DNA of 64,000 bases, taken from positions 1,159,871 to 1,223,870 of the forward strand of contig CBDCGG010000002.1 in NCBI GenBank assembly GCA_965216605.1. The letters run 5' to 3'. Made by a program: the position numbers and the translations under genes. Numbering within the stretch: the stretch's first letter is position 1; every line of letters starts with the position of its first letter. The DNA comes from Alphaproteobacteria bacterium (GTDB lineage Bacteria > Pseudomonadota > Alphaproteobacteria > JABAAW01). The notes under the pieces were generated by a model. That model was not told the origin of the DNA. It saw only the letters and a program-made list of their open reading frames with translations, and did not search any database. Positions 21,183 to 60,480 of this stretch are shown here, in pieces.

Positions 21183-21358
21183 ACTACACCCTCGCAAGCC
21201 AAAGGCTTGCGTATGGGGGGTGTGGGGGGACGAAGTTCCCCCGCAAAAACGCGCCGCGAGCGGGCGCGTTAGCGCCTTCTACGCGCGTAGCGCGTAGCCT
21301 CTTAATACTTAAAAGCGCGTTTCGCAGAAACGCGCAAGCAGCCTTGCGGTTTTACGAT
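21183..21358. repeat. Dispersed modular palindromic repeat, copy R1 (modules B+C, partial)
   Basis: ggggggtgtggggggacgaagttcccccgcaaaa...gcgccttctacgcgcgtagcgcgtagcctctta shared with at least 8 other loci. Confidence 0.75.
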
Positions 21359-21415
21359 GGTAAGAAACTTTGGTTTACATCATCGACTTGGGGAGGGTGG
21401 TGTTTTGCGGTTCTT

Positions 21416-22582
21416 TTGTTGGCAGGGGTTGTAATAATAGCAATTGTTTATCTTTCTTTAATTCCTAAAGATGCCGACACCATTAAGTACTTAGAACTTT
21501 ATGCGGTGATTGTCATTGGACTTATGTCTCTTTATATTGCAGGGTCGAGCTTTTGGGCAAAACAAGGCAGCGCGTTTTTTGTGGAATATCAAACAGCAAA
21601 GGATATGAATGTTGTTGACTTGTTTACATCTTCTAATATATTAGAAGATGCTATTGGCAATCCTGCAAACTCTACCATGCCTTATGTAAAAAGAATCTAC
21701 ATACGCAATGAAAAAAACAAACACGAGGCAATTAAAAGAATTTTATTGCAATTGCCAAACGAACAGACTCTTGTTTTAAAAGAATATAAAAAAGCCGACG
21801 CTCTTCTTATAAAGCCCTATGAAGCCAAGGTATTAAAATTAAATGCGGTAACATTTTATTTTAAGGAATATGACTTGACTCATGTAGGTAGAGGAAACTT
21901 TTTTTTTGATGATAATTTTGTGTATACTATTAAGGATGAAGAAATTCTTCGGAGCGGAAAAATTATTGTCGAAACAGCGCAAGGGCAGTCCTGTATTAAA
22001 AATAATAACAAGCCAATTTCATTTTGCAGCGAAAAGAATTTATTAAAACCAAGTAGATCTTTTTTTGGCATAACTTCCAGCGAACAAGAATTGACTTTTG
22101 GTTTTGATGTTATTTGTTCGCTAGAACTTTTAATGAAAAAAAATTTTGCTGACGATAAAATTTTTAATGACAGCATGCAAAAACAAATTTCTGAATATCC
22201 AAAAATAGCTGAAATGTTTTATAGGAGAGAAGGAGAATTGGCAATTCAAATAGTAATAAATTTATATAATAATATATCCTTATCATACTTTTTCCAAGCC
22301 CACAAAAAAAAATACACCTTACCTGTGCATGCAAATATAAAGAAAGAATTTTATGAGGCGTATAAAAAACATAAATTTTTTCCATTGCCAGCGGTGTTTG
22401 AAAAATCAAAAACCCAAAAAAACCGTATGTCTTTTTTTAATTTTTATTCTTTCTGTGATTCATGGGCAGAAAAAAAATGGGGAAAAAATAAAAGTAAAAT
22501 TTATAATTTTCCACAAGGATATTGCAACCAATTTGCTGTTTGCCAAAAAGAAACAAAAATCATCGACGACTTAAAACCTTAG
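21416..22582 (+). CDS. Hypothetical membrane-anchored protein on low-GC islet (island a); start uncertain
   Basis: About 30% GC over about 1.15 kb against a roughly 62% background. N-terminal TM helix (CFAVLLLAGVVIIAIVYLSLIP) and a second helix, then an about 330-aa K/N/F-rich globular part with no recognisable domain. The six-frame ORF start at 21098 runs through repeat R1 and is rejected; a TTG or internal ATG start is likely. Confidence 0.4.
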   Translation: MLAGVVIIAIVYLSLIPKDADTIKYLELYAVIVIGLMSLYIAGSSFWAKQGSAFFVEYQTAKDMNVVDLFTSSNILEDAIGNPANSTMPYVKRIYIRNEKNKHEAIKRILLQLPNEQTLVLKEYKKADALLIKPYEAKVLKLNAVTFYFKEYDLTHVGRGNFFFDDNFVYTIKDEEILRSGKIIVETAQGQSCIKNNNKPISFCSEKNLLKPSRSFFGITSSEQELTFGFDVICSLELLMKKNFADDKIFNDSMQKQISEYPKIAEMFYRREGELAIQIVINLYNNISLSYFFQAHKKKYTLPVHANIKKEFYEAYKKHKFFPLPAVFEKSKTQKNRMSFFNFYSFCDSWAEKKWGKNKSKIYNFPQGYCNQFAVCQKETKIIDDLKP

Positions 22583-22810
22583 CTCCTCGTCGTGTTGCGA
22601 GTCAGCTTGCGCACGGCAAGCCGTGCGCTTTTGAATAAGAGGCTACGCACTTCGCTTCGCTCGTGCGTAGATAAAGCGCTTACGCGCTCGCTCGCAGCGG
22701 GCTTTTTGCGGGGGGACTGCGTCCCCCCACGCCCCCCATGCGCAAAACTCACTTCGCCCAAAACTCATCTTAAGGCTCGCTCGTCTTGCGTTCTCCCGTC
22801 AATAATAAAA
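22583..22810. repeat. Dispersed modular repeat, copy R2 (inverted orientation; modules C+B)
   Basis: agtcagcttgcgcacggcaagccgtgcgcttttgaataagaggctacgca... ...ggggggactgcgtccccccacgcccccc, the reverse complement of the R1/R3 modules. Confidence 0.75.
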
Positions 22811-22845
22811 CGCCCCTTCTCTGCGTAAAGTGCTACAATCCCCCC

Positions 22846-57990: not shown

Positions 57991-58217
57991 GCAAGGTAAC
58001 AGGACGACAACAAACGCCAACAAAATTTTTGTGGAAAACTTTTGTTTCTTTGTAAAATTCATTTGCCAAAGCTTGCAAGAAGTTGTAGCATGCGCCTCCG
58101 ATGGAGAGGTTTGCCTCATTCCTAAGTGCTTTCTTGTTGCATCAAGCAGCATAGGAGAGCACTTGGCACAAATCTTGATTTTACAGGACATAGAGTTAAC
58201 GAGAGAAGGAACATTTT

Positions 58218-59795
58218 ATGACTTCAAGCAACTATCGCGTCCGTCGCCGCTCTTTGGTTTCCCAAAAAGCAGGAGACGGAGGCTCGGCGCTTTTGCCGAC
58301 AAAACGCAAGGCGCTCTCGCAGCGCTACAACAGCGCGCGGCGTAAAATTGCGATCCCCTCAGACAAGAAGTCTAGGCTTCGCGATGCGACCCTCATGTGG
58401 CGCACCTCGCGCGGCGTGCGGGCGTTCCATCTTCCCGTCTCGCGCCAGCGCATGCTTTTGGCTAGCGCGTGTGTGAGCTTGTTCATCGTCGCCTCCTTTT
58501 CGGGATGGCTCTTATGGCAGCGCGGCGAGATCGCCGTAGAAAAACGCAGGTTAGAGGACAGCGCAGCCCTTCTGCGCGTGGCGCACAACGCCTTGCTCGA
58601 TGGCGGAAACGGACTTTCGGGCCGTTCGCGCTCGACAGCATTGCTTGCGATATTAGAGCCCGACCTGAACAAGAAGGAACGCAGAGAGAAGGATCTGCGT
58701 CTTTTGCGCGATCGCGATGACTTGAAAAAAGTCTTGCGGCGCACAGAGCGTTTTTTGTCTCGTGCGCGCAATCGCAACAGCGATCTGGCTTTGGAGCGTA
58801 TTGCTCTAACCCAAAAGAACGAGCGTCTTCACCGAGATCTTCGGGCTTTGAATCAGGATTTGTCGTTCAGGCGCACGGCGTTGAACGATGCCGAGAAGCT
58901 TCGTTCGAGTGCGGAAGATCGCCTTGCCTCTGTCGAATCGAGCGCGTTGTCTTTGTTGAAAGATCTGCGCGGCGTGTTGGGGTCGAACAAAGATAGTCTA
59001 CGGGCTTCGACGGACGATCCGATGGTGGCAATACGCGATTTGGCGAAGGATGTTGCCAAAGAGGCGCGAGGGCGTCGCAAGCGGCTCACCTACTATTCGG
59101 AATCGTTGGACTATGCGATTGCGGGGTTGGAGCGCACAGTTTTCAACATGGGCATTATGCCCGATTTCTTGACGGGTTTGGGCTACACCATTTCGCCCGT
59201 TATCGCGAGAGGTGATACTTCGGGGTCGAACGGAGACGATTTGTTGAGCGCAGGCTTGGGAGGTCCTTTGGACGGAGAAGCTGTAGCAAAGGGGAGCGAG
59301 GATGATACAGAGGACGACGGTCGAACTTTTGCCGATTTGGACGACAAGTTTGAACGCTTCGATGCCTTGCGCAAGTTGGTGGGCTGCATGCCTTTGTCGC
59401 ATCCGTTGCGCGGAGGTGGGCGTTTCATCAGCGGCTACGGCAGACGGACAGATCCTTTCACGCGCGAGCCTGCGATACATTACGGCATCGATTTCGGAGC
59501 ATGGTATGACACGTCTGTTTATGCGGGCGGCAAGGGTCGTGTTTCCTTCACCGGTTACAGAACCGACTACGGTCGTGTAGTCGAGATCGATCATGGATGC
59601 GGCTTTCTGACGCGCTACGCGCATTTGGGCGACATTAGTGTGAAGGTTGGCGACGAGGTCGATGGAGAAACTATCGTGGGAGCCGTCGGCAACACGGGAC
59701 GCAGCACGGGTCCGCATTTGCACTACGAGGTAAGGTTGCAGAACAACCCCTTTGATCCGAAGCCTTTTGTCGACGGGGTGCGCGATGTTTTCTAA
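58218..59795 (+). CDS. M23-family peptidase with N-terminal TM and coiled-coil region (EnvC/NlpD-like)
   Basis: LytM/M23 motifs HYGIDF…, …HLHYEV. A long coiled coil precedes the catalytic domain. Confidence 0.75.
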   Translation: MTSSNYRVRRRSLVSQKAGDGGSALLPTKRKALSQRYNSARRKIAIPSDKKSRLRDATLMWRTSRGVRAFHLPVSRQRMLLASACVSLFIVASFSGWLLWQRGEIAVEKRRLEDSAALLRVAHNALLDGGNGLSGRSRSTALLAILEPDLNKKERREKDLRLLRDRDDLKKVLRRTERFLSRARNRNSDLALERIALTQKNERLHRDLRALNQDLSFRRTALNDAEKLRSSAEDRLASVESSALSLLKDLRGVLGSNKDSLRASTDDPMVAIRDLAKDVAKEARGRRKRLTYYSESLDYAIAGLERTVFNMGIMPDFLTGLGYTISPVIARGDTSGSNGDDLLSAGLGGPLDGEAVAKGSEDDTEDDGRTFADLDDKFERFDALRKLVGCMPLSHPLRGGGRFISGYGRRTDPFTREPAIHYGIDFGAWYDTSVYAGGKGRVSFTGYRTDYGRVVEIDHGCGFLTRYAHLGDISVKVGDEVDGETIVGAVGNTGRSTGPHLHYEVRLQNNPFDPKPFVDGVRDVF

Positions 59796-60348
59796 CAACA
59801 AGGAAAAGGGCAAACCTTCTGTGCCTGCCGTGTCGCAGGCGATCGACCTGAAGCAGGAGTTCATCGAGCTGGAGGAGGGGGCACCTTCGATCTTGAGTCG
59901 CGCGGTTTTCGTAAAGGGAAATATTCAGAAAAACGGAGACATGCATATGGAGGGAACTTTGCAGGGCAACATGCGGGCGAGGACGCTCACCTTGGGATCG
60001 ACCGCGCAGGTGCGAGGCAATATATCAGGAGATCATGTCAGGTGTTCGGGAAAGGTGGAGGGAAATATCACGGCAAGGGTCGTCGAGTTGTTTTCAACCG
60101 CTCGCGTGAAGGGAAATATAGTTCATGAGACTTTGGCGATCGAGGGGGGAGCTCAGTTGGACGGGATGTGTCGGAGGAGCGGCGATTTGTCCAAGTCGAT
60201 GGAGAAGGTTTTGCAAGAGGACGGATTCGATCCAACGGTGAGCCCGACCGACAACGGAATCACCGAGAAAAAGGGCGGAAGAAGTGTTATGGGATTCGGC
60301 GTGCCGAACAATAAGGACAAGGCGGCGGTGGTCGCAACAAAGCCTTGA
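59785..60348 (+). CDS. Bactofilin (CcmA/DUF583) family protein
   Basis: Beta-helical repeats KGNIQKNGDMHMEGTLQGNMRARTLTLGSTAQVRGNISGDHVRCSGKVEGNITARVVEL.... Start at MFSNNKEK. Confidence 0.7.
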   Translation: MFSNNKEKGKPSVPAVSQAIDLKQEFIELEEGAPSILSRAVFVKGNIQKNGDMHMEGTLQGNMRARTLTLGSTAQVRGNISGDHVRCSGKVEGNITARVVELFSTARVKGNIVHETLAIEGGAQLDGMCRRSGDLSKSMEKVLQEDGFDPTVSPTDNGITEKKGGRSVMGFGVPNNKDKAAVVATKP

Positions 60349-60349
60349 G

Positions 60350-60480
60350 GCGTTAAAGCGCTACGCGCGCGTTGTTTTCTTGTCAAAACACAAGTTCCGT
60401 TTCTTGGGTTTTTACCGCTACCAGTTAACATTAATAAACAAAGCAAGTCTGTTGCACGAGCGCAACAGATATACATAAAC
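60350..60480. repeat. Degenerate copy of dispersed repeat (R9; module A-like)
   Basis: caagtctgttgcacgagcgcaacagatatac resembles the gtctgttgcg...cgcaacagac palindrome of module A. Confidence 0.4.

Follow-up and report, generated by a model that had tools for sequence, protein, structure and literature searches.

The DNA analysed here is a 64,000-nucleotide (nt) stretch of the 1,625,166-bp contig CBDCGG010000002.1, referred to below as the window, and the element in question is a family of intergenic, hairpin-rich repeat arrays dispersed along it. The strongest feature of this family, which the initial annotation of the window had missed, is that the tips of the arrays border strain-variable accessory genes of low GC content. 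The initial annotation had described three shuffled modules; instead, we find at least six (A, B, C1, C2, D and E), plus spacer and mini-hairpin sub-units, and all 161 arrays follow one colinear order, (E|D)-A-B-C1-C2(n). The arrays are thus polar, with tandem C2 units at the distal end, and it is this C2 tip that meets the accessory genes: among 35 low-GC genes, 24 have a C2 tip facing them and none has one pointing away, compared with 47 and 78, respectively, among 417 genes of normal GC content. The related loci that entered this sample with the window (L numbers, here and below, label stretches of related DNA) were chosen for having C2, a choice that is neutral with respect to orientation.

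As a whole, the arrays are probably best explained as a lineage-specific family of the class that holds the repetitive extragenic palindromes (REPs), bacterial interspersed mosaic elements (BIMEs) and Neisseria intergenic mosaic elements (NIMEs). According to this explanation, the family is a polar composite of about 300 nt that would act as a terminator or insulator, and the fragile centres of its palindromes would gather cargo genes; we infer both that role and the fragility as the cause of cargo placement. The host clade consists of uncultured Alphaproteobacteria with small genomes (1.6-1.9 Mb) and a type III secretion system.

Low-GC genes at the C2 tips

The window contains four low-GC islands (21356-22582, 29731-32121, 40122-41775 and 48844-50112), all of which adjoin arrays, three of them at a C2 tip. 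Low-GC genes were found only beyond C2 tips, and the flank beyond the terminal C2 falls below 45% GC in 26% of cases against a background of 7.6%. The genes that lie between convergent arrays encode two GIY-YIG proteins, two T5orf172 proteins (one fused to a DNA methylase), an HNH_2 protein, a restriction enzyme with a methylase, GmrSD, an AAA_13 ATPase, Sel1 and RTX proteins, unknown membrane proteins and members of a CCDC90-like family. About 30 cargo open reading frames (ORFs) were examined, and none carries a transposase or integrase domain; the cargo has its own TTGACA-type promoters. The CCDC90-like (DUF1640) proteins are small coiled-coil proteins with a C-terminal membrane segment, and their genes have normal GC content. 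The sampled DNA has 14 copies, every one of them beyond a C2 tip: for nine, a facing tip is no more than about 180 nt away, and for the other five 0.5-1.7 kb, mostly cargo, lies in between. Copies also occur at L044 3726-4142, L050 5555-5995 and L077 1433-1942.

Comparison of the same intergenic sites between genomes shows how the cargo varies. Two relatives are central here: OZ244186.1, a 1.90-Mb chromosome of an alphaproteobacterial metagenome-assembled genome (MAG) whose core genes are 88-92% identical to those of the window, and a metagenome contig (L001 and L101) that is 98-99% identical to the window and therefore represents a second strain, strain B. Between alr and mlaE, the array is kept in four genomes with three different cargoes, namely Sel1 and T5orf172 genes in the window and OZ244186.1, an HNH_2 gene in L001, and an unrelated gene of 305 amino acids (aa) and 28% GC in L102. 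The gap between bactofilin and ligA measures 165 nt in the window and contains an A remnant; in strain B, 98.8% identical, it is occupied by a low-GC parA/CbiA-like gene together with an E-C2-C1-B-D array (L101 571-2110). Between nusB and thiL, the window has the array alone, and only L103 carries a C5 methylase gene and a second low-GC gene at the tip. The methylase-T5orf172 cassette of the window occupies another chromosomal site in OZ244186.1 (L019 7853-7999), where it begins at the same nucleotide, CTTACTCCTCATTCGC, and shares the 3' boundary; the gene is also present at L101 12375-13643. Since the two copies are 97% identical in DNA (45 of 45 aa) over the 147 nt compared, against about 90% in core genes, and occupy different chromosomal sites, the cassette may be a recently mobile selfish gene. 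Finally, a 4.5-kb block at 32191-36365 (MR_MLE, NAD-binding dehydrogenase and BCCT genes) is inverted relative to L102 1-5402, with arrays at both break points.

Composition and spread of the arrays

Sequence reading and module maps place members of the family at all ten sites listed by the initial annotation, which had correctly described a dispersed, intergenic, hairpin-rich family with copies in both orientations. The hairpin variants that it quoted are also present (GCGCGAGG/CCTCGCGC, GCGCACGG/CCGTGCGC and GCGCATTG/CAATGCGC), in addition to CTAC...GTAG hairpins of variable length. The arrays and the cargo of the window are as follows.

21183-21350, plus strand: array 3' of glyA, with B 21207-21250, C1 21272-21298 and C2 21295-21347 (variant linker); the tip faces a low-GC gene
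21356-22582, plus strand: low-GC (0.32) cargo gene between convergent arrays, predicted membrane protein without a Pfam family
22583-22800, minus strand: array upstream of ribD, with C2 22591-22645, C1 22643-22679, B 22697-22751 and D 22735-22792; the C2 hairpin and TTTTGAATAA directly follow the cargo stop codon
25775-26100, plus strand: full array after nusB, with A 25785-25867, B 25873-25935, C1 25964-26003 and C2 26001-26061, then spacer; no cargo
29281-29720, plus strand: array with a hairpin 29288-29310, an A fragment, D 29357-29403, B 29387-29450, C1 29504-29536 and, at the distal end, tandem C2 units 29534-29595 and 29645-29704
29731-32121, minus strand: low-GC (0.29) cargo, AAA_13 ATPase of 796 aa; its 3' end adjoins a C2 tip
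34431-34640, no strand assigned: E module 34457-34492 and inverted E fragment 34563-34586
36448-36745, minus strand: array between the divergent BCCT and dnaB genes, with a partial unit 36450-36508, C2 36509-36570, C1 36568-36609, E 36645-36707 and an A fragment 36710-36741
39605-40117, plus strand: longest array, after alr, with E 39642-39698, A 39756-39838, B 39844-39901, C1 39918-39936, C2 39934-39994, spacer and mini-hairpin, and C2 40044-40102
40122-41775, minus strand: low-GC cargo at alr-mlaE, Sel1-repeat protein and T5orf172 (GIY-YIG-like) protein
41808-42158, minus strand: member of the CCDC90-like coiled-coil/membrane family
48844-50112, minus strand: low-GC cargo, N6/N4 DNA methylase fused to T5orf172
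50225-50410, minus strand: array remnant, with a B-like G/C tract and hairpins 50245-50320 and A 50323-50405
53105-53400, plus strand: array between the S6 operon and mnmA, with D 53168-53226, an inserted hairpin block, B-like 53314-53364 and a C1-like hairpin
60350-60480, minus strand: short A-type hairpin remnant (60447-60469)

Arrays differ from one another in the presence or absence of modules and in the number of tandem C2 units, which follow one another head-to-tail every ~108 nt (65 tandem C2 pairs were counted). The 108-nt unit is composed of a mini-hairpin, the linker CCTCTTATTCAAAAG, the C2 hairpin, AAGCTGACTCGTAACATGGTACGG and a spacer that itself forms a hairpin. The array ends have neither target-site duplications nor sharp outer termini, and the proximal ends are ragged, with degenerate fragments. 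Further recurrent motifs occur in the flanks of the D and B modules (L010 ~3055, L085 ~1987, L012 ~4174 and L051 ~532), among them TTTTGT(A/C)TTGACGG in tandem copies and a GTCCCAAAAAACGGGAC hairpin with GCGC(A/T)TTGACG after it. These motifs lie outside the six models; the family has more modules than were modelled.

In the window, the 19-mer of the C2 linker, GCCTCTTATTCAAAAGCGC, is found seven times at up to two mismatches (0.00 expected) and the 16-mer of the A tail, GACGGATGCAAAACAT, three times (0.04 expected), so that the family cannot be a product of chance. A repeat search recovers many direct and inverted families, with matches of 85-93 nt at 91-95% identity between sites 14-24 kb apart; for example, 25783-25875 matches 50315-50407 over 93 nt at 95% identity. 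Comparison of the module map with the gene annotation shows that every module in the window is intergenic, and the flanking genes are ordinary chromosomal ones (glyA, ribD, nusB, a thiL-like gene, an aldehyde dehydrogenase gene, a BCCT transporter gene, dnaB, alr, mlaE, radA, a purF-like gene, the S6-S18-L9 operon, mnmA, gatCAB and ligA). No copy lies in the first 21 kb of the window. A profile search with the six module models over 753 kb counted 262 C2, 164 B, 102 A, 78 C1, 44 D and 44 E modules.

The copies are by no means confined to this region. In a scan that used one genome per species, the C2 linker motif occurs in at least 82 separate 8-kb stretches of that chromosome, and at least 135 exact matches fall in at least 76 separate 8-kb stretches. 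This genome-wide spread rules out a local segmental duplication, the outcome that the initial annotation had set as a refutation of its proposal. Among the matches listed, those outside OZ244186.1 are two in another alphaproteobacterial MAG and five isolated, chance-like ones. GlyA relatives of 94 to 72% identity are confined to ENA assemblies and are followed by others at 67-68% (Stellaceae, Amaricoccus and others); the window comes from a distinct uncultured alphaproteobacterial clade. Within this group, the modules are present and diverged in L103 (GlyA 87%) and absent from L104 (GlyA 77%), where the glyA-ribD gap is just 186 nt. The repeat family is therefore lineage-specific, and genomes that differ by about 10% in sequence still have its arrays in the same intergenic positions.

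The initial annotation recognised no known sequence family, and our searches agree. Rfam at gathering thresholds gave no family over the whole window, and a tRNA scan of the window was empty. The C2 linker had no match in IMG/VR, and BLAST of a 471-nt composite against plasmids and phages gave no match. Exact-match protein look-ups with NusB and two other proteins (P0122 and P0126) were empty. Matches in JGI metagenomes (13 singles) were rejected as chance, since only the searched 19-25 nt match and no other module is present. The longest near-identical copy measures 225 nt at 96% identity, and no set of recent, identical copies marks out a mobile unit; because long near-identical copies are missing, the repeat population looks old and kept similar in patches.

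Several annotated or predicted proteins coincide with arrays. The annotated 186-aa 'gene' at L102 5487-6047 (60% GC) is wholly a double array (A B C2 / C2 C1 B A), and ORFs run through arrays of the window at 29217-29585, 39441-39854 and 53121-53606. Repeat arrays in these MAGs are likely mis-annotated as proteins. Core genes also end in G-rich stretches that code for Gly/Arg/Val-rich tails just before arrays, such as ggggggtatggggagtagggggttggggagggc; those at 25700-25768, 34380-34417, 39560-39611 and 48760-48791 are either C-terminal extensions or arrays read as ORFs.

Regarding the repeat-free part of the window, positions 1-18300 hold a type III secretion cluster with an SseC-like translocon gene (8971-10020), an EscN-type ATPase gene (13888-15285) and a secretin gene (15813-17825). 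Since this cluster upstream of glyA is common to L103 and L104, the organism would be host-associated. Two adjacent paralogues within the cluster (6025-6693 and 6748-7509) share 80-88% DNA identity over about 490 nt and have no Pfam family; they may be duplicated effector or chaperone genes.

Stem alleles, convergent pairs and predicted termination

The C2 hairpin bears out the compensatory stem variation that the initial annotation had proposed. Among 148 distinct copies, 131 double-sided changes were counted against 25 in shuffles (none of 500 reaches the observed value), 99.7% of 1331 cells are standard pairs, and pairing collapses to 17-57% in the slid-partner controls. One-sided wobble pairs account for only four cells, and another four lack pairing. 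The variation resolves into about nine discrete, fully complementary alleles, including GAGGC, GTTTC, ACGGC, ACGAC, ACGCC, ATTGC and TATTGC, which often differ by transversions on both sides. The C1 hairpins all begin with CTAC and end with GTAG and are perfect palindromes of 8, 15 or 17 base pairs (bp), the internal mini-hairpins are perfectly paired over 5 bp, and the B and E stems show 29 and 14 double-sided changes, respectively. Folding of the array against shuffled sequence gives z values of -9.0 and -7.7 for the two strands, and that of a doublet gives -5.6. In strains that are 98-99% identical, a whole hairpin module is replaced, not mutated: after alr, the window has E and an A-type stem (GTCTGTTGCG...), and in L001 the same A tail comes after just one stem (GTCTGCCTTTGC...).

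Convergent C2 pairs were found 27 times with spacers of 10-11 or 39-43 nt (a few at 23 or 52 nt), and 21 convergent pairs enclose cargo. Not one of 25 close doublets has the same stem allele on both arms (5.5 expected, P ~0.0008); same-allele pairs make up 8 of 16 cargo-separated pairs and 32 of 65 tandem pairs, as in random pairing. The numbers of C2 units on the two sides of a convergent pair are correlated (rho 0.58). A preference for heterodimers has been described for several REP families and explained as an escape from SbcCD cleavage of long perfect hairpins (PMC3733652). The initial annotation had concluded that selection acts on RNA or single-stranded DNA structure. Its basis stands, since the stems are compensatory and nearly perfectly paired; however, the discrete alleles, the few wobbles and the unlike doublet arms leave other readings. 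Because the alleles are discrete, G-U intermediates are nearly absent and the doublet arms are never alike, the constraint would bear on DNA palindromes as much as on RNA, and these features fit DNA-palindrome maintenance with allele amplification at least as well as stepwise RNA compensation. We read the stem pattern as allele amplification and conversion under a requirement for perfect pairing on both DNA strands, and not clearly as RNA compensation in single steps.

The same hairpins resemble terminators. C1 and C2 rank at the top of a 20-kb terminator scan, which returned 50 sites against 26 expected. On the array strand, the C1 stem is followed by CCTCTTATTC, and on the opposite strand the C2 stem is followed by TTTTGAATAA, so that the two stand back to back on the shared linker CCTCTTATTCAAAAG; read in reverse, the mini-hairpins have tracts of up to eight T after them. 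From this arrangement, C1 (forward) and C2 with the mini-hairpins (reverse) are predicted to be back-to-back intrinsic terminators. Because they are terminator-like in both directions, the arrays would insulate neighbouring transcription units. By a crude gene call, arrays occupy 46 of 99 convergent, 57 of 354 tandem and 24 of 90 divergent gaps; they are enriched at gene 3' ends and are not limited to them. A role in termination and at mRNA 3' ends has been proposed for BIMEs.

Proposed mechanism, rival explanations and known systems

In the favoured explanation, copies would differ because internal modules have been lost and the 108-nt C2 unit has been amplified in tandem. An array would insulate the adjacent transcription units, and a convergent pair would enclose the content between its arms. 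Convergent arrays would form long quasi-palindromes. At their centres, hairpins or cruciforms would readily break and be repaired, and repeats would readily undergo homologous exchange. Genes would therefore be inserted, replaced and inverted mostly at these centres, and an insertion would stabilise the palindrome. Patchy gene conversion would let copies spread and stay similar. An enzyme acting on single-stranded DNA hairpins, either a nuclease of the GIY-YIG type or one like the REP-associated tyrosine transposases (RAYTs), is perhaps also involved; none was found in 770 kb of related DNA, which corresponds to about 35-40% of one genome.

Several observations weigh against this explanation. 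The break points of the terminal C2 are scattered over the unit, with no constant insertion point for cargo, and thus give no support for a precise recombination mechanism. The RAYT that the initial annotation had suggested did not appear in the 770 kb, either by tblastn with E. coli RayT and IS200 TnpA (nothing better than E = 1) or with a narrow hidden Markov model (HMM) built from 120 enterobacterial RayT proteins (nothing below E = 3 in 5327 six-frame ORFs). The GTAG of C1 is paired inside the stem and is not an unpaired tag as in REPs, and C2 has AGTCAG three bases before its stem (AGTCAG-CTT, then the G-C stem). Terminator or insulator activity is predicted from the sequence pattern, and its role is less obvious in the 24 divergent gaps that hold arrays. 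At least one cargo gene, that beside glyA, is old: its orthologue in the corresponding gap of L103 has 44% aa identity (GlyA 87%), so that low GC does not always mean recent acquisition. Lastly, the gene calls behind the statistics follow a crude longest-ORF rule, and the related loci entered the sample through their C2 content, although this selection is neutral on orientation.

A true REPIN-RAYT system, in which the hairpins are REPs, the convergent doublets are REPINs and a single-copy RAYT elsewhere copies them through single-stranded DNA, is unlikely. It would account for C1 variants that keep their CTAC and GTAG ends around a variable, perfectly paired interior, and for inverted doublets that have conserved spacers and are exclusively heterodimers, as in several REP families (PMC3733652). 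The copies are also old and diverged, with no long identical ones, as expected of persistent REPIN populations. However, the paired GTAG, the direct tandem C2 units and the six ordered modules are unlike REPINs, and the RayT and TnpA searches were negative within the reach of the narrow profile and of the 770 kb. Quite unlikely is a chromosome-wide docking platform, in which convergent arrays would receive single-gene cassettes (defence genes, nucleases, effectors and the multi-copy CCDC90-like family) by means of a dedicated hairpin-specific single-strand DNA enzyme. This enzyme, for which the array-flanked GIY-YIG/T5orf172 proteins or an unseen HUH enzyme would be candidates, would cut at module boundaries and cause capture, exchange and inversion at the tips, making the platform a distributed, inverted-repeat analogue of an integron. 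A GIY-YIG single-strand nuclease of the Ssn type that recognises hairpin repeats and modulates incoming DNA, as with Neisseria dRS3/NTS, is very unlikely here. The only two canonical GIY-YIG ORFs of the sample (L047 5098-5757 and L066 6019-6615) do lie between convergent C2 arrays, two cargo genes of the window have the related T5orf172 domain, and the repeats surround variable genes, around which Neisseria dRS3/NTS repeats also cluster (PMC11893778); repeats of the CGTC/NTS type are moreover typical of Alphaproteobacteria (PMC3733652, PMC11893778). Nevertheless, the SRM pattern HGTCWYN(0-2)YYVSBRHN(0-5)WNVSBRGN(0-2)RNCYNB has no match in the window, and none of its four matches in the 770 kb overlaps a module. 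CGTC families are defined by A-T first pairs and the CGTC tag, both of which are missing from the stems here, as is the 8-9-bp stem with a CCA tail, and the GIY-YIG proteins have 200-220 aa, not the ~94 aa of a single domain, match generic GIY-YIG, UvrC and intron-endonuclease models weakly, and have no relative in the PDB.

We regard miniature inverted-repeat transposable elements (MITEs) or nested foldback transposons as extremely unlikely. In such a model, C2 would be the terminal inverted repeat, and repeated central insertion would leave the cargo versions innermost; the convergent C2 pairs with their short conserved spacers do look like ~165-nt MITEs, the C2 counts of the two sides correlate (including 2:2 and 3:3 cases), and the cargo is always central. 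The arms of one inserted element should nonetheless be alike, and those of the close doublets never are (0 of 25), for which reason we reject the nested-transposon model; in addition, there are no target-site duplications, sharp outer termini or recent identical copies, and no transposase in the ~30 cargo ORFs. An integron-like platform, with C2 as an attC-type folded site at which a site-specific recombinase inserts promoter-bearing cassettes, is just as hard to credit. Single-gene units with tight boundaries, the methylase cassette that starts at the same nucleotide in two contexts, hairpin sites that keep their structure while the sequence varies, and cassettes swapped at a fixed site all favour it. 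However, the cargo is flanked by inverted and not direct sites, the sites are dispersed over the chromosome and not gathered in one array beside an integrase gene, there is no constant junction nucleotide, no recombinase domain occurs among the neighbours examined, and the cargo carries promoters of its own, whereas integron cassettes are mostly promoterless.

The favoured explanation, a lineage-specific family of the REP, BIME and NIME class, shows how a small host-associated genome would arrange its variable genes: conserved arrays stay in place next to core genes, and their tips gain and lose genes for defence, nucleases and effector-like proteins. Examples had been available from Neisseria and enterobacteria, and the present family extends them to the Alphaproteobacteria with a polarity that is very clean (24 facing, 0 away). 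Its many natural stem variants offer material for the question of whether hairpins are kept up at the DNA or the RNA level, and, if a dedicated enzyme were found, the family would be a possible model for repeat-guided gene capture.

As to its class, the initial annotation had pointed to a REP/BIME-type resemblance, which we uphold. Like REPs and REPINs, the family has short GC-rich intergenic palindromes in hundreds of copies, discrete stem subtypes, inverted dimers with conserved structured spacers and heterodimers over homodimers, enrichment downstream of genes, and an old, vertically inherited population (PMC3733652; PMC3116915). It differs in its six modules of fixed order, its arrays of 300-500 nt with C2 also in direct tandem, the lack of an unpaired GTAG or CGTC tag, and the RAYT not found in the 770 kb. 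The Neisseria NIME/dRS3/NTS repeats with SsnA share the clustering of hairpin repeats around variable, horizontally exchanged genes, a proposed promotion of recombination, repeat-flanked GIY-YIG genes and host-associated bacteria (PMC11893778; PMC1797815). In contrast, the modules described here lack the SRM/NTS motif and are ordered, not RS units bracketed by dRS3, and no small Ssn homologue was identified in the sampled DNA, where the repeat-flanked GIY-YIG proteins have ~200 aa and match generic models weakly. Intrinsic bidirectional terminators also have GC-rich stems followed by T-rich tracts in both directions, here with the linker CCTCTTATTCAAAAG in common; however, the arrays also conserve more than 60 nt outside the stems, keep several modules in order and reach a high copy number, which shows common descent and copying, not independent terminators. 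With E. coli BIMEs, the family shares a mosaic of palindromic units and conserved linker motifs, and adjacent inverted units that differ in type (Y and Z in BIMEs, stem alleles here). BIME units alternate in orientation, whereas the present arrays are polar and colinear with C2 in direct tandem; there is no sequence similarity, and low-GC cargo at the tip is not a BIME feature. In summary, we file the family as a new one within the known class of intergenic mosaic palindromic repeats (REP/BIME/NIME), unusual in its strict module order and its strict polarity towards accessory genes.

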